Below, one piece after another: positions 1,727-20,000 of a stretch of DNA of 20,000 bases (the first letter of the stretch is position 1; every line of letters starts with the position of its first letter). The position numbers and the translations under genes are program-made. The stretch is from NCBI GenBank assembly GCA_022813865.1, contig JALDZX010000055.1, positions 116,871 through 136,870 on the forward strand. Direction: 5' to 3'. Origin of the DNA: Xylographa opegraphella (taxonomy: Eukaryota). The notes under the pieces were generated by a model. The model was given only the letters and a program-made list of their open reading frames with translations, was not told the origin of the DNA and did no database searches.

Positions 1727-2576
1727 ATGTGGTTCGATCTCTTTGTCTGTGCAACGTTGGTATCCCTCGCGCGCCTCTCCTCGGCTCAAGTTTTCTCGAA
1801 TCTCCCTTCATGTCTTCAGCATTGCGTTGACAAGTATGATTCTCCATGCGGCAAAGCAGACATGAACTGTGAGTGTTCGAGCATTGGGGCGGCCCCGTCC
1901 GGCTGCGAGACTGACACGTCTAGGTCTATGCCGATTAGCTGGCGTAAGCTTCCTTACCAAAGTGGCCCAATGCTTCGAGAACTCTTGCGACGATACAGCA
2001 GATCTCGATTACCTTCTCACTGCTCTGGAGTCTGAGTGCCAGCTCTTGGGTAGCTCTATCCCAAGCGCCGTGATGGCAAGCGCGGAAGCTGTTGCCTCTG
2101 GTTCCAGTCCTTCGAGCGCGGGGACGGAGACAGATAACGGCCCGGGAGCGTCCCTAGCAACCGCAATGGCATCTAGGACTACGCAGACTGTCACGATAAC
2201 AGAAACAAACAGTTCGGGGCAAGTGACAGCCGTCGAGGTGCCTGAAGTCTTTGATGGGACGACAACTAGGATCGGTGACCTCTCGACCATGGGCTCGATG
2301 ATGGTTAGTACTTCAGGAAGTCTGACGCTTGCCCCGCCAACATCGTTCGCTTTATCGGCCACATTCGCCGACACAACTCTGGAGCCGTCAAGCTTAGCTT
2401 CTTTGTCACTCGGCGCGTTGTCAACAGCAAGTACGAGTACGTCGAGTGCTGCCGCTGCGGCGCCAAGCGAAGGGAACGGCTCGCTCTTCACATCACAGAA
2501 CGCCGCGAGGCAGGAAAGAGCCAGTGCACTCCTAGGGCTGACACTTGGCCTCGTGGCCGGAATTGTGTGGGTTTGA
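1727..2576 (+). CDS. GPI-anchored CFEM-domain cell-surface protein (~264 aa)
   Basis: Exons 1727-1868 and 1924-2576 (intron GTGAGT...CTGAC...TAG). Signal peptide; 8-Cys CFEM pattern LPSCLQHC...PCGKADMNCLC...QCFENSC...EC; Ser/Thr-rich stalk; C-terminal NAA plus hydrophobic tail ALLGLTLGLVAGIVWV (GPI signal). Confidence 0.88.
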
Positions 2577-3029: not shown

Positions 3030-3933
3030 ATGTCTCAGCTGAAAGGAAACAAAGCGATCAGCATCCTGGATGCTGCGGCCAAGGGAAAGTATGGAGTGCC
3101 GGCAGTGGTCGTGGTGAGTTCTGGCGGTTGAATATTCCTTCTATCCTGATGTGCGTCCACAGTATAACATGGAGGCCATTATCGCCACCGTGCGAGCGGC
3201 GGAAGCCAAACGCTCGCCAGCGATGCTGCTGTTGTTCCCATGGGCTCAAACATACTCGTCCACATGCCTAGCTGCGCTTTGCGCACACGCTGCCCGAAGC
3301 GCCAAGGTGCCCATCACCCTACACCTGGATCATGCCCAAGATCCGCAAGCCATCCGCGAGGCGGCTGACATGGGCTTCTACGACAGTATCATGGTGGACA
3401 TGTCTCACCATGAGAAGGCGGACAATTTGCGGTTGACCAAGGAGCTGGTGGCGTACTGCCATGAGCGAGGTATCGCTACAGAAGCGGAGCCTGGTCGGAT
3501 TGAGGGTGGAGAGGACGGAATCTCCGACACAGCGGACCTCGCAGGTCTCCTCACATCCCCCGAAGAAGCACGCGAGTTCGTGGACACCGGCATCACCTGG
3601 CTTGCTCCCGCTTTCGGGAACGTGCATGGCAACTACGGCAGCCGGGGGATCCAGCTGGAATACGAACGGCTCGATGCTATCAACAAAGAGGTGGGAGACG
3701 AGACTCGGCTGGTGTTGCACGGGACCGACGGGTTTGACGAAGACATCTTCAAGCGTTGCATCCAGCATGGGATCACCAAGGTGAATGTCAACAAGTCCGT
3801 CAACCGCTGCTATATGGACATGCAGAAAGAGGGCAAGCTGGGCTTGACACAGTTGATCGAGCAAGGCACGAAAGCGATGCAGGAGAAGGTCGAGAACATA
3901 ATGGACCAGCTTGGCTCCACTGGCAAAGCGTAG
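3030..3933 (+). CDS. Class II (Zn) ketose-(bis)phosphate aldolase family protein (~284 aa), bacterial class IIB-like paralog rather than the glycolytic Fba1
   Basis: Exons 3030-3113 and 3163-3933 (intron GTGAGT...CTGAT...CAG). Motifs YGVPA..YN, LHLDH, DSIMVDMSH, EAEPGRIEGGEDG, AFGNVHG, LVLHG, KVNVN, and the C-terminal GSTGKA. Confidence 0.92.
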
Positions 3934-9672: not shown

Positions 9673-10773
9673 ATGTCCCAAAAGTGTGTTCACAAAGGCT
9701 GCGGCAAGAAGTTTGCCGATCCTGATGAGCCTTGCACCTATCATCCTGGACCACCTATCTTCCATGAGGGGCAGAAAGGTGTCTGCACTCCCTTTTTCAT
9801 TGTCAATACCGAGATGAGGCTGGCTAACGTTTTATGCTAGGCTGGCAATGCTGTAAACCACGCGTCTTGACGTTTGACGAATTCCTCACTATTCCACCAT
9901 GCACGACTGGAAAGCACTCCACGGAAGAAGAATCACCCCTGGATCCCGCAGCATCTTCTAATCAAGACGAACCTCCAAATCAAGCTCCGAAGCCCGTCGC
10001 TTCCCTTACTAGCGAGTCGCCAGCTGCCCGGACTCCACAATCTACGCCGCAGTCAGTACCCGAGCAAGCGCCGCCAGAACCTGAATCCGAAGAAGACGAT
10101 CCTTCGATACCAATCCCACCAAATACAACATGTAGGCGTCGAGGGTGTGGAGCTTCTTCATCAGTTTCAACTGCCTCGTCCCGTGAAGGTGAACAATGTG
10201 TTTTCCATCCCGGTCATCCTATTTTCCACGAAGGAAGCAAAGGGTGGACATGTTGCAAGAGGAGAGTTTTAGAATTTGATGAATTCTTGCGAATTGAGGG
10301 TTGCGAGAAGAGAGAACAGCATAAATTCGTTGGGAATGGCAAGAAAAGGAAAGCTGTCAATGGAGGCGGAGAAGAGAGAGTGGAGAATGTGAAGTACGCC
10401 AGTATCGCTCACCTATCTTAGGAAGGGACTAGCTGACGATTTGTCCTTTGTTACCAGACATGATTTCTATCAAACATCTACTACGGTTCATGCATCTCTG
10501 TATCTCAAGAAGATTTCCAAGGCAAACGCCAAAATATCTTTCTCCTCCCCAACGACAATTGAACTCGATCTTCCGACCACTGATAGCAAAAGATACAAAT
10601 CTTCTGTTCCTCTTTACGCGCCGATTAACACAGAAAAGTCGGCGTGGAAAATAATGGGCACGAAAATGGAGCTGACCCTGGTGAAAGCGGATGGTCAGAG
10701 CTGGCCGGTACTACGCGCAGACGAACGGAGAACTGGCGAGATAATCCAGGTAGGGAAAGCAGGGCAGGCGTAA
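9673..10773 (+). CDS. chpA: CHORD-CHORD-CS domain Hsp90 co-chaperone (Chp1/Rar1/morgana family, ~324 aa)
   Basis: Exons 9673-9778, 9841-10393, 10458-10773. Two CHORD repeats (CVHKGCG...[20 protein letters not shown]...C..GKH; CRRRGCG...CVFHPGHPIFHEGSKGWTCC...GC..H) and a CS domain (HDFYQT...GTKMELTLVKADGQSW). Confidence 0.95.
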
Positions 10774-13569: not shown

Positions 13570-15259
13570 ATGTGGTCTCAATCGATTCTTTATGCTGGGC
13601 TTGCCATTTGCGGTACCATCGCTCTTGCGTTGCCCCACTCGGCCTCCAAGGACAAACGGTCCTTCGTCGAACGCGATGGCGTTACCTATACTGTATTCGA
13701 GCATGCTGATACCGGAGCAAAACTGGAGTTCGTCACGAACTCCGGCATCTGTGAAACCACCCCAGGTGTCAACCAATACTCCGGATATCTTTCCGTGGGC
13801 ACAAACATGAGTGAATAATTTCTTTAACAAATGCTTCCTATAATGCGACTGACATGAAATCAGATATGTGGTTTTGGTTCTTCGAGTCTCGAAACAGTCC
13901 TACCACCGCGCCACTCGCGCTTTGGTTGAATGGCGGTCCGGGGTGCTCGAGCATGATTGGCCTTTTCCAAGAGAACGGCCCGTGCCACTTCGTCAACGGC
14001 GCTTCAACTCCATCCCTGAATCCCTACAGCTTTAACGAGTACGCGAATATGCTATATGTGGATCAGCCGATTGGCACCGGCTTCTCCTATGGCACCGATG
14101 ATGCTACCGGAACGGTATCCGCAGCGCCGTATGTCTGGACTTTACTCCAAGCTTTTTACACCCAATTCCCAACCTACGAATCGCGCCAATTTGGACTCTT
14201 TACGGAGTCTTACGGAGGACATTATGGTCCCGAGTTTGCCCATTATTTCCAAACCCAGAACGCCGCAATCAAGGCCGGCACGGTCAAAGGCGACAACATT
14301 GACCTTATTGCTCTCGGAATCAACAATGGATGGTATGATCCGATAATACAATACAAGGCATATGTGGATTACAGCTACAACAATAGCTACAAGCCACTTA
14401 TAACCGCCGCCCAACACACCTCTTATACAAACACTTATACCAATAATTGTCTCCCTCTGCTGAAGCAATGCTCGTCTGTCACAGGCGAGAACTCCGCCTG
14501 CGAGAATGCCGAAAATACCTGCTACAATGATATCGAAGGCCCGCTCACTCAAGTTGCGAACTTTGACGTCTACGATATTCGGGAGCCAAGCAATGATCCA
14601 TATCCACCGGAGACTTACGTCACATATCTACAGAGTGCAACTGTTACGAAAGCGATTGGAGCAAAGGCAACCTATACAGAGTGTCCAAATGCGCCATACA
14701 ACAAGTTCGCTGCTACTGGAGATGGTATGTGGTGCTTTCATGCTTGGATCATGCAATTATCCTCTCCTTGTCACCGTTGTAAATATTGCGGTGATCCAGG
14801 CCCTAACCCTCTCAATGGCTGCTGTTTGCATATTTGTGTAGATTTGTGTACGACGAAACTAACAAACTTTCCAGACTCTCGATCATTCCTCTCCACCCTA
14901 TCAAACGTTGTCGATACTGGTCTCACAACCCTCATTTGGGCTGGAGACGCCGACTGGATCTGTAATTGGTTTGGTGGTCTCAACTCCGCCAACGCGATCA
15001 CCTACTCTGGACAGTCTGCCTTCGCCGCTGCGCCGCTAAAGAGCTACACTGTTAGTGGAACCCAGACAGGAACTTTCAAAAGTGTTGGGAACCTGAGCTT
15101 CTTGAGGGTATTTGCAGCTGGTCATGAAGTACCTTATTACCGTAAGTACATTCGCTGCTCCGTACAGACGAGCAGATATCCTAACATGGCACAGAACCGG
15201 CCACTGCCCTTCAAGTATTCAAACAGACAATGTCGCAGACGCCGATCTCGTCGACGTAG
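13570..15259 (+). CDS. Secreted serine carboxypeptidase, family S10 (carboxypeptidase S1-like, ~477 aa)
   Basis: Exons 13570-13810, 13864-14724, 14875-15141, 15195-15259 (1434 nt). Signal peptide plus KR; CETTPGVNQYSGY, WLNGGPGCSS, DQPIGTGFSY; catalytic TESYGG (Ser), GDADWICN (Asp), AGHEVP (His). Confidence 0.96.
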
Positions 15260-16060
15260 CAATGGCCAGTGCGATTGGAGCGATTGGAGTACGACGAGTG
15301 ACATGAGGTGACGAAGCAGGATATGCAGTTTGACGAGCACATGAATAGGAGCTACCACACCCTTATATCCTTACTCTTCTTCACCCAGTGTCATTTATAA
15401 TGTAGAACCCATATTGACTAATGACATAACACTGCAAAGATACCATGCCGAACCAGGCACATGAAGAGTAGCCTCTGTATGTCGTGAAGTAGTCAAGGCC
15501 AAGAGGCCGAATATCTGCCAGGATTAAAAAGCCCCCTTTCTGTCATTCAATCACTTCCTGCCAACCGCAACAACCTCTCCCGTTCCAACATGGCCTCGTG
15601 CACGGGATGAAGGTCTCTGCGAATTCCCATTGCGCAATCAAAAAGAAGATCTTGTTTGAGGCAGTCGAAGACCCTTAGGGCATTGCGTGGATATGAATCA
15701 CTTTAATATGGTTTCGGGAAACAACAGGGGAGTTGTTCGATGGCAAGTTCGCTGTCCTGTCAGACGCTACGTCTTCCTAGTACAGTACGACCAAAAAAAT
15801 GATAACAGAGTCCGAGCGATTCATTCCTGTTCAGTGTACATACAAGAAAGTTGATAACCTGTTCTATGTAACTACCGGACTCTGGGGAGGTCAATGCTAG
15901 TAACCGTGATGAAATAACAGCCTGCACAAGCTGATGCCCTGACCTTTCCAATCCTCCGTGGCCCTCCATGATCAATATTCAACGCCAGTGCTCCTGCTGT
16001 TCGGCTCAACTTACTGATGCCGTCCTGCGCATGAGAAGGACCGCATGCTTCTCCCGCTAT

Positions 16061-17443
16061 CTAGTAGTCATACTCGTCGTAGCCATAAGCTTCACGGGCA
16101 TAAAGACCATCCTCGAAATAGAAATCAGCTTCAGCTTCAGCATCAGCCTCTGCCTCGGCTTCTGGGTATGCCTCCCTAGCATAAAGAGACATCCACTCTT
16201 CGTATTCAGGTTCAGCATCACGCTCCTCGAAGTAAAGCTCCTCTGGGAATGCATCCCTTGCCTCTATCCAGCGACGGGGAATAGGCGGCAGCTGTGCAGA
16301 CATCTGCATGCCACCGCCAGCACCGCCATTGCCCATGTTCGCGCCCCCATTGCCACCCTTGACATTGCCGCCGTTTTGGGCGGTGGAGCTTGACATGTTG
16401 ATGATTTGGCCGTTGCCCTTGAGGTTGGTCTTGCTTATAGTGTTCTTGTTCTTAGAGGTGTTGCCACCAGAGGATTTGCTGTTTCCTCCGGATGCTCCGC
16501 CACCGTCCAGGAACGCTTCGCGCTCGAGGATAAGAGTCTCCAGCTCCGCCTCACGCTCTTGGATCTCGAGGTTGCGAGCTGCAAGCGATCGCTTCCTTGG
16601 GATTGGAGGTAGCCCGACAGACATCCCGAGCTCCCCACCAGCACCTCCAGAGCCCATGTTTGCACCTCCTTTCCCACCTTGAACATTGCCACCCTTTTGG
16701 CTGGTCGCACTCGACATATTAATGATTTGACCATTACCAGAAAGGTTGGTCTTGTTAATCTTGTTGTTGTTCGAGGAGGTATTACCACCTTTGGCGCTGG
16801 AAGAGCCACCCTTTGCTGCACCGCCATTGAGGAAGGCTTCGCGCTCGAAGATGAGGGCTTCGATCTCAGCTTCAGCCTCGGCGTCGGCTTCAGCATCCCG
16901 CTCGTAAAGCAAGTCATCGACATCCCGCATCTCCAAATAATTAGTGTTGTAGAGTGATCGTTTGCCCTTGCCCTTCTTGCCGCCAGTTGAGGTGGCTGTA
17001 GCGGTATTTCCCCCATTGATGGCTGTGGTGCTTTGCATGTTGAAGTTTGAATTACTACCGAAAGTGTCGCCATTGAGCTGATAACTGTTTGCAACCTGGT
17101 TGCCACCACTAGCAGAGTTAGAAGAATGCTTCGGGTAAGCTGCGCGTTCGATGATGTGCTCCCCGCTTGCATCCCGGACGTAAATGCCCCAATTCTCTGC
17201 GTCCCGCGCATAAAGTCCCCGCTTACCTCCCTTCTTGGGGACTCCTTTCGTCGCCGGGGCGGGTGATTGAGTAACCGTGGTGCCGAGATTCAGAACATCG
17301 TTGGCGCCGAATTGGTCTTTACTAAATTTATAAGTCGTGTCGACAGTGGTACCTCCATTGGAAGAAGAAGACTTCTTGGCGTATGCCTCAGCGCCAAGGG
17401 TAAGACCAAGAATCACGGCGGAAGCGGTCGCGACAGTTTTCAT
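16061..17443 (-). CDS. Secreted Kex2-processed repeat protein (KEP) precursor, 460 aa, releasing four Gly/Asn/Ser/Lys-rich peptides
   Basis: Intronless ORF with signal peptide; KR/RKR/RR sites at aa 74-75, 161-162, 283-285, 390-391. Many hydrophobic-x-x-R sites (LYAR, IYVR, IIER, LYER, IFER, ILER, IEAR) are followed by EA/DA/YP/FP dipeptides. Internal 107-aa duplication. Confidence 0.85.
   Translation of the reverse strand: MKTVATASAVILGLTLGAEAYAKKSSSSNGGTTVDTTYKFSKDQFGANDVLNLGTTVTQSPAPATKGVPKKGGKRGLYARDAENWGIYVRDASGEHIIERAAYPKHSSNSASGGNQVANSYQLNGDTFGSNSNFNMQSTTAINGGNTATATSTGGKKGKGKRSLYNTNYLEMRDVDDLLYERDAEADAEAEAEIEALIFEREAFLNGGAAKGGSSSAKGGNTSSNNNKINKTNLSGNGQIINMSSATSQKGGNVQGGKGGANMGSGGAGGELGMSVGLPPIPRKRSLAARNLEIQEREAELETLILEREAFLDGGGASGGNSKSSGGNTSKNKNTISKTNLKGNGQIINMSSSTAQNGGNVKGGNGGANMGNGGAGGGMQMSAQLPPIPRRWIEARDAFPEELYFEERDAEPEYEEWMSLYAREAYPEAEAEADAEAEADFYFEDGLYAREAYGYDEYDY
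16274..16834 (-). repeat. Intragenic tandem duplication (321-nt period) encoding two 80-aa peptides
   Basis: aa 204-283 (16834-16595) and aa 311-390 (16513-16274) align without gaps; 57/80 residues identical by hand count. Confidence 0.95.
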
Positions 17444-19427
17444 TGTGAATATTCAACTGTAAAATCAATATTGAATAAAATTCGAAAAAGAGCCTGGAGA
17501 TCAACTCGTGAAATGCTCGTAGATAATAAAGGTATATCTCGTCAAGAGATTAAAGAGATACAATGACAACAATGTGATGAATATGAGATCTAATAGTCCA
17601 CCTGAGGAAGTTCAAGGACTTGATATACAATCGACCGGAGAGCATTCCAACATATCTTTGTGGCACGATACCTTGAAGTGATATCGAACTCAACACTCCT
17701 TCCGGTGTTGGATATACAGCAGGGTGAGAGAATACAACATACTGAAACTTGGGGTCAAGAGGGAGGCAAAAGACCATCCACGATACCAACAAAGTGAATG
17801 TAATTTGCAAGTCACATTACCAATGGCTCGGGCGTATGTAGTAAAGCTTGAATCAAGCAGACGCTCGAAGGTGAGACGGCGGCGTGGGAGCTATAACGAC
17901 TTGCGATTAGATGGTCGTGAACGAGATTAAATTATTGATGCCCGCTGAGAATCTCGCTCCAGAAAGACCGCCCTTGAGTCGTGAAGAAAGTACAACGTTT
18001 GAGACAACCCATGTAGAACCGTTCAATCCAGGCCTTGTCAAATGGCGTCCAGGAGTTCAGGCTAGTGCCCCAGCTTCTGAAATCAAGCCTGGCTTGAGGA
18101 CCACCACGCCTTCCAAACCTTTCATCTTGTCTCATGTGGCCTGATATTGAAGTTGGGATATTGTTCACGTTGGCCTTGAGAGCCCCAGCCGAGGTTTGTG
18201 CTATTCTAGCATACTCGTAACCAACGCACCTGGGCGGCGGCGGCTGTTGTTGAAAACTATCGGCAAAATGTTATCGTGGAGAGCCCGTTCGAAGGCGAGC
18301 GTGGCACAGATGCCAAGTAGCGTCCTAGTCCATCACTGCTGTTGATTGTAGCAGACAACGAACCCGTTCGCGATAGCATGCACTATACACAATCTACCGC
18401 TGTCACATTCGTTGAAGAACAATGTGGGAGGAAGGATGGGTCGGGGTTGCATGCGGTTGAACTGTGGCCTGCGGCTCGGCCGAACTCGAAGCTAATCCTA
18501 ATCCACGACACTTCTCGGGTCCAGCACTCTTGACAAAAGGCCGAATACGAACATTCACCGGCGCCGCAAGTGGTTATGCGGCGTCGATAACAGCGAGGCC
18601 TGGGTCACTGGCTAGGTATACTGAGCTTGCGTGATGCTTTTACTTGTTCAGCCTTAGGACCTAGCGGACGCCGTTGTTGGCGGGAGCGGGAGTGTTGCGT
18701 TTGACAGCTCATTCTGGATTCGTGTAAATGTGCTCAGCCTCCACCATGGCGCCCGGACTCAGCAGCAGGGATTCTCCAGCTTGTGCGCTCGTCCCACAGT
18801 TGGCAACCATCAAGTCCTGGAAAATACTGTTATCGACGGGGGTAGTGGTCTGCATGGAACGGTGCCTCTTCAGTCACGGACTGTCGTCTGACACACGACC
18901 CCTTACAGAAGAAAGCAGGATTGATCAGGGCCACCACTGCACAACTTGCATTGGCTTCCTTGCCCGACGTCTCTCAACGTCCCAGAGCTTCACCAACACA
19001 ACATTGCATTGCCACCCTAATGCACCCCTCTTGGGCCTTCTCGGAATTATTCAACGGGCAAACTGGGGTCTCGTCGATATCGAAGCAGCTGTTTCCAAGC
19101 TACCTCGGTCAAACACCAATATCAGTGGTGCTGTCTTGCATCGAACTCTTGGCTGGTTCCTGCCCCTGATGGTTCCTGCCCCTGTGAATCGACCAACAAT
19201 GGAATGAACCCGGAGGTAATGTCCCGTGCAACTGTTCCACAGGCACGTATATATATCACTGTACGGTCGCTGAAAGAAGCGATCGGTAAACATGGGAAAG
19301 TCTGGAAGACCCACAGCCTTCTTGCGCCGATGAGAATTAAGTTATCTTTTACGCTTATCAGTTTTCAGGTAAAATTCGTTTATTCCCCTACAAGCGTTGA
19401 TCGCTGTTTACAAAGCTTGTCTCCACC

Positions 19428-19922
19428 ATGAAGTTCACTACTACTTTCGTGATCTCCTGCCTCTCATTCGGCACTTTCGCTCTGGCCAAACAATTCCCAA
19501 ACATGCAGCGTCATCAAAACTACGACACCCGAAAACGCAGTGCAATGGCTGCAGCCGAAGCATACGCCTATGCATCTCCTCAATTCCATGACGGTGAGGT
19601 CGATCTGTTCTCGCGCGATGCCGATCCAGAAGCCTACGATGAAGAGTACGAGATCTTCAGGCGTGGCGCCTTTCCAGACTCGCTTCCCGACACAGACGGC
19701 CTATTCGAACGAGATGCTGATGCCGATGCTGAGCCGGAGGAGTGGGTGGAAAAAGAATTCTATATCATTCCACGAGATGCCGAGGCGGAGGCTTACGCAG
19801 AAGCTATAGCTCTTCCATGGACCCCGAAGATCAATGTTAATGGGGGTAAAATAACTAAGGATACGCTAAAATGTAACAAGAAGGATGTATGCTCTGGTAC
19901 CATTGAAATACAAAATAATTAA
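19428..19922 (+). CDS. Small secreted Kex2/Ste13-type propeptide precursor (164 aa) with a basic C-terminal peptide
   Basis: Signal peptide MKFTTTFVISCLSFGTFALA; RKR then SA-MA-AA-EA-YA-YA-SP; LFSR|DA-DP-EA; IFRR|GA-FP; LFER|DA-DA-DA-EP; IIPR|DA-EA-EA-YA-EA-IA-LP; then WTPKINVNGGKITKDTLKCNKKDVCSGTIEIQNN. TATA-like TATATATA near 19248. The 3' end is uncertain because of a possible intron from GTATGC at 19887. Confidence 0.8.
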   Translation: MKFTTTFVISCLSFGTFALAKQFPNMQRHQNYDTRKRSAMAAAEAYAYASPQFHDGEVDLFSRDADPEAYDEEYEIFRRGAFPDSLPDTDGLFERDADADAEPEEWVEKEFYIIPRDAEAEAYAEAIALPWTPKINVNGGKITKDTLKCNKKDVCSGTIEIQNN

Positions 19923-20000
19923 CTTGTTCTGTTCTTTGTAACGGCGTGTTACATGGCACCTTAACAAGTAATAGACGGAACGGGACTAAAGCGCGTCCGG

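Follow-up and report, generated by a model that had tools for sequence, protein, structure and literature searches.

Several described systems release secreted fungal peptides from larger precursors. For repeat proteins processed by KEX2 (KEPs), one route has been outlined in which KEX2 acts first, STE13 then removes XA/XP dipeptides and KEX1 acts last (PMC6339444), and the motif LxxR, with an aliphatic residue at position P4 and Arg at position P1 of the site, is a Kex2 site in fungal effectors (10.1101/2020.05.27.120113). Lichen-forming fungi are absent from the main texts of two KEP surveys (PMC6339444, PMC7329392), whose supplementary tables may list some, and a 2025 study of ribosomally made peptides with post-translational modifications (RiPPs) in lichens reported no repeated precursor in the clusters that it examined. 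As a source of ribosomal secreted peptides, lichen fungi are almost unexplored. The present analysis concerns a 20,000-nucleotide stretch from Xylographa opegraphella (GenBank assembly GCA_022813865.1, contig JALDZX010000055.1, positions 116,871 to 136,870 of the forward strand), hereafter the window, in which two divergent genes appear to encode secreted peptide precursors of this kind: a large one (P0001) with four related cores, and a small one (P0002) with a single peptide.

The two open reading frames (ORFs) lie head to head with 1984 bp between their start codons, and the pair of divergent frames about 2 kb apart described in an earlier, sequence-only reading of the same DNA was recovered with its coordinates exact (Table 1). 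Both proteins have signal-peptide-like N-termini, recognised by eye from the sequence; that of the large protein consists of MK, a hydrophobic run of 15 residues and AEA, and is conserved across the family alignment. Within the large precursor, cores P3 and P4 are close copies of an 80-amino-acid unit, and the shorter P1 and P2 cover its positions ~10-60. A seed hidden Markov model (HMM) built from P3 and P4 recovered these two units at ~1e-46, as expected by construction, and P1 and P2 weakly (independent E-value 0.006). When 19 short units were compared with 39 long units of the family by hhalign, the probability was 96% (E 3.8e-9, score 46.4), with a maximum score of 17.4 over 100 column shuffles; an earlier run with a less clean set of short units had given 98.6%. 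P1 and P2, noticed before to fit the frame of the other cores more loosely, are diverged copies of the P3/P4 unit.

The cores share a distinct composition. Gly, Asn, Ser, Thr and Gln together account for 51-68% of their residues, and their net charge is +3 to +6, as against -2 to -21 for the spacers and the tail; across the 39 long units of the family the net charge ranges from +2 to +7. Positive charge within the cores is contributed by Lys only, and none of the 19 Arg residues of P0001 lies inside a core, save R283 and R390 at extreme core ends. The C-terminal tail holds four hydrophobic-x-x-R sites, each followed by D/E-A. Relatives contain from 2 to 5 units, and most invariant columns of the family alignment belong to the long unit's second half, which is Gly-rich (GG-x-GGAN-x-G-x-GG-x-GG). 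Cleavage in silico at KR74-75, KR161-162, KR284-285 and RR390-391 yielded five fragments, where the KEP definition, as summarised in PMC6339444, asks for at least four after KR/RR cleavage; it also asks for at least three fragments with one repeated motif, and these were recognised by HMM and hhalign profile comparison instead of the Fimo procedure of that paper. A signal peptide at the N-terminus and the absence of a membrane anchor are asked for as well, and here the start of the protein is signal-peptide-like by eye. By its fragment and repeat features the large gene is an undescribed, lichen-restricted KEP member with unusually long, foldable cores.

The arrangement of the putative cleavage sites is non-random. 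In P0001, a hydrophobic residue stands at position P4 of the site for 14 of the 19 Arg residues and an X-Ala dipeptide follows 11 of the 19, values that were reached, for either feature, in 0 of 5000 composition shuffles. The non-dibasic Arg residues lie in the spacers, apart from the two at core ends, and thirteen have L/I/F at P4. In P0002, both features (hydrophobic P4, then X-Ala) coincide at 4 of 8 Arg residues (p = 0.0004). The pattern of hydrophobic-x-x-R or KR followed by X-A/X-P runs, pointed out in the sequence-only reading, was hence borne out in both proteins, and so was its description of the two genes as secreted propeptide precursors sharing one Kex2/Ste13-type grammar. Among 20 large-family proteins, 27 of 37 long-unit starts (scored by the motif F/L-[LMF]-x-G-G) have immediately before them 1-14 X-[A/P] dipeptides that are exactly in register with an Arg upstream; in the other 10, a GG precedes the motif, two residues earlier, and by eye the same register rule fits from that GG. 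The register is kept through run lengths of 2 to 28 residues, as stepwise dipeptide removal would demand, and dibasic sites are found after the long units of the relatives as well. Taken as a whole, the precursor and processing architecture is considered highly probable.

The same acidic Y-x-R-D/E-A-Y-P-E-A spacers surround unrelated cores in eight other proteins (P0070, P0072, P0075, P0077 and P0041-P0044). These precursors, secreted-looking and recovered as weak matches of both profile searches, come from sources that include Lambiella and Circinaria. Since unrelated cores carry the same spacers, the grammar is lineage-wide rather than specific to the pair. In P0077 a Lys/Gly/Ala-rich core occurs twice and, to our reading, resembles an amphipathic antimicrobial peptide. 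Acidic spacers joined to dipeptide runs might be used as a key for finding an entire class of peptide precursors in lichens.

The large protein retrieved 19 homologues at E <= 0.01, the eight organism-labelled ones all being from lichen-forming Lecanoromycetes: five Xylographa species (81-85% identity), Lambiella insularis (59%), Trapelia coarctata (41%) and Icmadophila ericetorum (35%). An 18-member profile run against 1.84 billion representative proteins gave 42 matches at E <= 0.001, of which 23 were at E <= 1e-10, so the family is small. Metagenome contigs searched with P0001 and with the small-family alignment returned zero relatives. Zero Pfam families were found for either precursor protein at E <= 1, in agreement with the earlier remark that the peptides were not recognised as a named family, and literature searches retrieved no description of this precursor family, though the supplementary tables of the KEP surveys may list lichen proteins. 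On this evidence the precursor family is previously undescribed and lichen-restricted, with defence peptides or self-assembly as its most likely functions. Among the homologue matches of the large protein no database model was 100% identical, and the gene may be unannotated or differently modelled in its own genome. One family member, P0021, has an aberrant Cys- and Arg-rich C-terminal part after a partial third unit and lacks the acidic tail; it is probably a frameshifted or mis-assembled model.

The small protein had 10 homologues by direct search and 23 proteins by profile search. When 16 of the profile-search proteins were aligned, 11 kept the peptide and both Cys residues, four (P0041-P0044) matched in the spacer only and one (P0037) differed. 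In the 11-sequence alignment W131, T132, P133, K134, I135 and D145-C149 (part of K-D-T-L-K-C, itself invariant) are invariant and C155 is near-invariant, the conserved stretch reading W-T-P-K-I ... K-D-T-L-K-C-N-K-K-D-V-C-S-G; W-T-P-K-I and K-D-T-L-K-C are kept in distant relatives too. The propeptide closes with R116 and seven X-A/X-P dipeptides (DA EA EA YA EA IA LP) that lead to W131. In the AlphaFold model, built on 11 sequences, residues 1-112 mostly had a predicted local distance difference test (pLDDT) value <50, a single helix was placed at 118-126, and only residues 131-164 were folded, as a small beta-hairpin sheet with pLDDT 77-83. This model gave no VIA-align match at Z >= 2, and the ESM Atlas, queried with the small core and with the P3 unit, gave no usable match. 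A second, unlinked paralogue of the small gene occurs in X. soralifera (P0032, MMC17_008133; 38% identity), with the K-D-T-L-K-C ... C-S-G core kept and I-T-P instead of W-T-P.

The deposited model of the small gene in the window (P0022, 153 amino acids) apparently splices the gene near its end; it stops at D153 and loses the conserved second Cys. Eighteen relatives, nine orthologues and nine more distant proteins, read through this position and keep both the C-S-G-x-[IV]-x-[IV] motif and the second Cys. For this reason the unspliced reading is the better one, and the intron at 19887-19974 is probably a mis-call rather than a real intron, which answers, indirectly, the concern raised about it in the sequence-only reading.

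According to the sequence-only reading, the small peptide shared its core with the large repeats and was their homologous single-copy relative, as in CsgA/CsgB. The shared core failed the shuffle test that this same reading had set for it. Smith-Waterman alignment of the 34-residue core with P1, P2, P3 and P4 gave p = 0.064, 0.128, 0.107 and 0.354, respectively (5000 shuffles each), and with the whole large protein p = 0.245 (3000 shuffles). The scores of the 10 small-family proteins against an HMM of the 39 long units were all from -1.3 to -2.3 bits, within the spread of 2000 shuffled controls (979 reported, maximum 2.9 bits). By hhalign, the small core matched the long units with a probability of 0.13% and a score of 7.7, reached by 42 of 100 column shuffles, and the short units with 0.08-0.18%. 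No homology between the cores was detectable, and the register seen by eye (GG, K, NK, SG, I and N) mirrors shared composition. The balance of the evidence tips slightly towards two unrelated genes for secreted prepropeptides that have stayed neighbours and whose products mature through one secretory-pathway machinery.

The association of the two genes extends beyond the window. Consecutive locus tags were found in X. soralifera (MMC17_009403/04), X. carneopallida (MMC34_004442/41), X. bjoerkii (MMC18_004909/10) and Lambiella insularis (MMC13_007335/36), the X. parallela pair lies on contigs of the same size (180800), and so does the distant pair P0017/P0031 (32932). Adjacency was upheld by locus tag in three Xylographa species and Lambiella, while the head-to-head orientation is known from the window alone; the gene pairing is real and conserved, though of limited reach. 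A complex prediction, run without alignments, that joined the small core to the large protein's residues 24-392 scored 0.00 and is no evidence in either direction.

Table 1. Features of the two precursor genes and of the rest of the window (positions are those of the window; net, net charge; aa, amino acids)
Feature	Positions	Strand	Basis or remark
Large precursor gene P0001, 460 aa, single ORF	16061..17443	-	ORF and translation
Signal-peptide-like N-terminus of P0001, residues 1-19 (MK, hydrophobic run, AEA), then one Y-A dipeptide	17387..17443	-	Read by eye; conserved in alignment
Core P1, residues 23-73, short unit, net +4, then KR74-75	17225..17377	-	Matches long-unit HMM positions 10-57
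Core P2, residues 105-160, short unit, net +3, after R100-AA-YP, then KR161-162	16964..17131	-	
Core P3, residues 204-283, long unit (F-L-N-G-G ... L-P-P-I-P-R), net +6, after I-F-E-R-EA, then KR284-285	16595..16834	-	
Core P4, residues 311-389, long unit, net +5, after I-L-E-R-EA, then RR390-391	16277..16513	-	
Acidic Tyr/Glu/Ala-rich C-terminal tail of P0001, residues 392-460 (69 aa), net -21	16064..16270	-	No core; pLDDT below 50
Divergent intergenic region, 1984 bp between start codons	17444..19427	.	Presumed seat of both promoters
Small precursor gene P0002, 164 aa, read without intron	19428..19922	+	ORF and translation
Acidic propeptide of P0002, residues 21-130, net -17	19488..19817	+	pLDDT <50 for most residues as far as 112
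Predicted mature peptide W131-N164, 34 aa, net +3, six Lys, no Arg, Cys149 and Cys155	19818..19919	+	pLDDT 77-83
Candidate intron, GT at 19887	19887..19974	+	Implied by deposited gene model P0022
Serine carboxypeptidase gene (Peptidase_S10, E 2.4e-81)	13854-15311	+	Tail to tail with the large precursor gene
Weak CFEM-domain ORF	1727-2035		E 4.5e-4, below Pfam cut-off
Class II fructose-bisphosphate aldolase	3169-3933		Pfam scan of window ORFs
CHORD-domain protein	9834-10421		Pfam scan of window ORFs

Maturation of both precursors would begin with removal of the signal peptide. A Kex2-type endoprotease would then cut after the KR/RR pair at the C-terminal end of each core, and also after the Arg of the hydrophobic-x-x-R sites in the acidic spacers; a Ste13-type dipeptidyl aminopeptidase would strip the X-Ala/X-Pro dipeptides that follow, and a Kex1-type carboxypeptidase would trim the basic residues. 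Along this route the large gene would give rise to four related Lys-rich, Gly/Asn/Ser/Thr-rich peptides, two of ~50 and two of ~80 amino acids, each with a strand-turn-strand core, the longer two carrying the conserved Gly-rich stretch and a PP[IM]P end. The small gene would yield one 34-residue peptide, a probable beta-hairpin stapled by a Cys149-Cys155 disulfide. Until cleavage, the acidic spacers would neutralise the cationic cores. We infer the cleavage itself, the participation of Kex2, Ste13 and Kex1, and the disulfide from the positions and conservation of the residues concerned.

AlphaFold modelled the whole large precursor (18 sequences) with a mean pLDDT of 48 and a predicted template modelling score (pTM) of 0.42. 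Order was restricted to residues 33-58, 109-143, 215-250 and 322-357 (block-mean pLDDT 70-88), each forming a strand-turn-strand element, and the spacers were disordered or helical. Block means were 72-84 for the P1 strands (33-41 and 50-58), 76-86 for those of P3 and 72-88 for those of P4. In this model, which is of the uncut precursor, the four units are stacked in a beta-solenoid-like manner within one body. A VIA-align comparison against 48161 chains placed the Escherichia coli CsgA fibril first (Z 6.3, root-mean-square deviation 8.7 A, 99 residues aligned), followed among the matches listed by SufD-type proteins and then by adhesins, pectate lyases, FapC (Z 4.5) and bactofilin; by their entry titles, all 50 listed matches are beta-solenoids or beta-helices. 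By the tool's own statement, models that have no true match commonly reach a best Z of 7-8; a Z of 6.3 lies within noise, and the result indicates a predicted fold class and not a relationship. It keeps self-assembly in play but lends no support to the small gene as a nucleator. No PDB entry reached E <= 0.001 in a Foldseek search with the large model, and a PDB sequence search with the large-family profile gave chance-level rows only (lowest E-value 0.086), none of them relevant at E <= 10.

The folding of four units into one body could mean that the large protein is secreted uncut, as a beta-solenoid protein (an adhesin or an ice-binding surface protein, for instance) with long acidic loops, and both adhesins and an ice-binding protein are among the weak structural matches. 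The dibasic site after each of the four cores and after the long units of relatives, the X-A/X-P runs in register and the exclusion of Arg from the cores would then be hard to explain; proteolysis is favoured for this reason, and an uncut protein is regarded as very improbable.

If the units are released, the same structural and compositional hints would suit self-assembling surface or matrix peptides that form repellent-like cross-beta fibrils on hyphae, the small gene encoding an independent peptide. A precedent exists in Ustilago maydis Rep1, a Kex2-type precursor with amyloid-forming peptides as described in PMC3133707, and the number of units among relatives varies as it would in a polymerising module. 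The structural match is, however, at noise level, and the best-conserved, Gly-rich half of the long unit lies outside the predicted stack, which leaves this explanation rather unlikely. The two-gene functional amyloid proposed in the sequence-only reading goes further, with fibril subunits from the large gene and a homologous, disulfide-locked, CsgB-like nucleator or cap from the small one. It draws on the stacked strand-turn-strand layers, on the matches listed being headed by CsgA and including FapC, on the G+N+S+T+Q content of the cores, on Rep1 and on the conserved gene pair. It has to contend with a small core that is not homologous to the repeats, a Pfam search that at E <= 1 gave neither a Curlin repeat nor another family, a Z below the noise mark of the tool, an empty Foldseek result at E <= 0.001, a model of the uncut precursor built on 18 sequences, strongly cationic and hydrophilic peptides, and a shared grammar that is lineage-wide rather than pair-specific; the proposal in this form is quite unlikely.

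The products are tentatively read, with a probability somewhat short of even, as extracellular cationic effector peptides, most likely for defence (antimicrobial-type), whose copy number has been amplified. This reading is based on the combination of cationic cores and anionic spacers, on the presence of several copies, on activation by dipeptide removal and on the occurrence of cores resembling antimicrobial peptides in the same grammar family. The main alternative, appreciably less probable, is a self-assembling surface layer of the curli or repellent type. Several points weigh against the interpretation preferred here. Stacking of the four units in the AlphaFold model would suit a structural role at least as well as defence, and the Gly-rich stretch, which is the best-conserved part of the long unit, was modelled with low confidence. 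In the small family, a KK-containing stretch replaces the X-A/X-P register before the Trp in 2 of the 11 sequences (P0026 and P0031) and in most distant members, which makes the exact N-terminus of the small peptide less certain than those of the large-gene cores. Lastly, outside Xylographaceae no small-family partner on a contig of equal length was found, bar P0017/P0031, and none for Trapelia, Icmadophila or the remaining contigs.

Signalling was weighed against the defence reading as well: as KEP products of the pheromone or hormone kind, the peptides would be perceived by the fungus that makes them or by its algal partner. Precursors of alpha-type pheromones typically carry a Ste13-type signature behind their Kex2 sites, which in the account given in PMC6339444 is a proposed mark of signalling KEPs, and the small peptide is highly conserved, with W-T-P-K-I and K-D-T-L-K-C invariant. 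Cores of 50-80 amino acids are nonetheless far longer than pheromone-type peptides such as a 14-residue repeat described there, and four diverged cores with low-complexity Gly-rich segments and a high net charge would be unusual for receptor ligands, so that signalling appears distinctly improbable.

A more speculative extension of the structural alternative, and an unlikely one, is that the released units build up a eukaryotic counterpart of curli, an extracellular polymer of cross-beta (beta-solenoid) type on the hyphal surface of lichen fungi, the acidic spacers acting as built-in anti-aggregation chaperones. If this were true, small secreted beta-solenoid peptides of this self-aggregating kind would become candidates for lichens' still unidentified proteinaceous ice nucleators. 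How ice nucleation works at the molecular level outside bacteria is described as largely unknown, and the ice nucleators of Fusarium are thought to be much smaller proteins (both as stated in PMC12978214).

Regarding the remainder of the window, the intergenic region contained no recognisable gene, its ORFs at 17911-18144 and 18728-19207 being without a Pfam match. An exact tandem direct repeat of 15 nucleotides, TGGTTCCTGCCCCTG, is present twice at 19154-19184 with 16-nucleotide spacing, ~245 bp upstream of the ATG of the small gene, and is followed near 19250 by a TATATATA stretch; both are possible promoter elements. Nine ORFs of the window were scanned, which gave the S10 peptidase, the CFEM, class II aldolase and CHORD proteins, and five without a family. 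Genes for peptide-tailoring enzymes of the RiPP type (DUF3328/UstYa, tyrosinase, methyltransferase) were absent from these nine ORFs. The carboxypeptidase ORF spans at least one intron, unspliced. Its identification as Kex1 was considered and rejected: the protein's similarity to carboxypeptidase Y (1.5e-40) exceeds that to Kex1 (1.2e-25), and it is on that account probably not the Kex1 trimming enzyme.

Among animal host-defence precursors, promelittin and the apidaecin multipeptide precursors combine cationic cores, acidic pro-pieces and stepwise X-Ala/X-Pro removal, with several copies per precursor in the apidaecin type. The likeness to the present locus is one of logic only, in a different kingdom. 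Should the lichen peptides prove antimicrobial, they would provide new scaffolds from slow-growing symbiotic fungi; should they self-assemble, fungi would have a counterpart of curli that arises by proteolytic release. The large precursor is similar to curli (CsgA/CsgB) and Pseudomonas FapC in its imperfect Gly/Asn/Ser/Gln-rich repeats, for which stacked strand-turn-strand layers are predicted. It differs from them in sequence, given the empty Pfam search and the chance-level PDB matches mentioned above; the partner gene here is not a homologue of the subunit, and protease sites and acidic spacers lie between the units. Both the sequence signature and the subunit/nucleator homology were looked for and not found, and the large gene, on its sequence, does not belong to the curli family. 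With Rep1 the large precursor contrasts in its predicted number of peptides (4 versus 11) and in that amyloid formation has been shown for Rep1, as against a weak structural match here.

Two further classes of fungal precursor were considered and set aside. Dikaritin/ustiloxin-type RiPP precursors have short, highly repeated cores (a criterion taken from the description in PMC12048977), whereas those of the large gene are of 51-80 amino acids and only two of them are near-identical. The processing signature of alpha-type mating pheromone precursors is present, but cores of 34-80 amino acids are far longer than the pheromone-type peptides presented in PMC6339444. Kex2-processed pro-domain (K2PP) effectors such as SnTox3, ToxA and the SIX proteins (10.1101/2020.05.27.120113) resemble the small gene and the spacer sites in having a disordered pro-domain and a site with an aliphatic P4 and Arg at P1. 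They are single folded effector proteins of plant pathogens, whereas short peptides are predicted here, with dipeptidyl-aminopeptidase-type runs after the pro-region.

The closest correspondence is with the KEPs, which include the yeast alpha-factor precursors and, as outlined by Le Marquer et al. 2019 (PMC6339444) and Umemura 2020 (PMC7329392), have a signal peptide (here a signal-peptide-like N-terminus) and likewise several related cores with KR/RR at their bounds, and cut sites followed by X-A/X-P dipeptides. In place of the short motifs typical of KEPs, the large gene has Gly/Asn-rich cores of 50-80 amino acids that are predicted to fold, together with long acidic spacers and many extra monobasic hydrophobic-x-x-R sites, and in its relatives the dipeptide runs reach 14 units. 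Its organism-labelled homologues were found only in lichen-forming Lecanoromycetes, and the locus offers a clean, conserved example of a lichen-restricted precursor family whose predicted maturation termini are explicit and testable.

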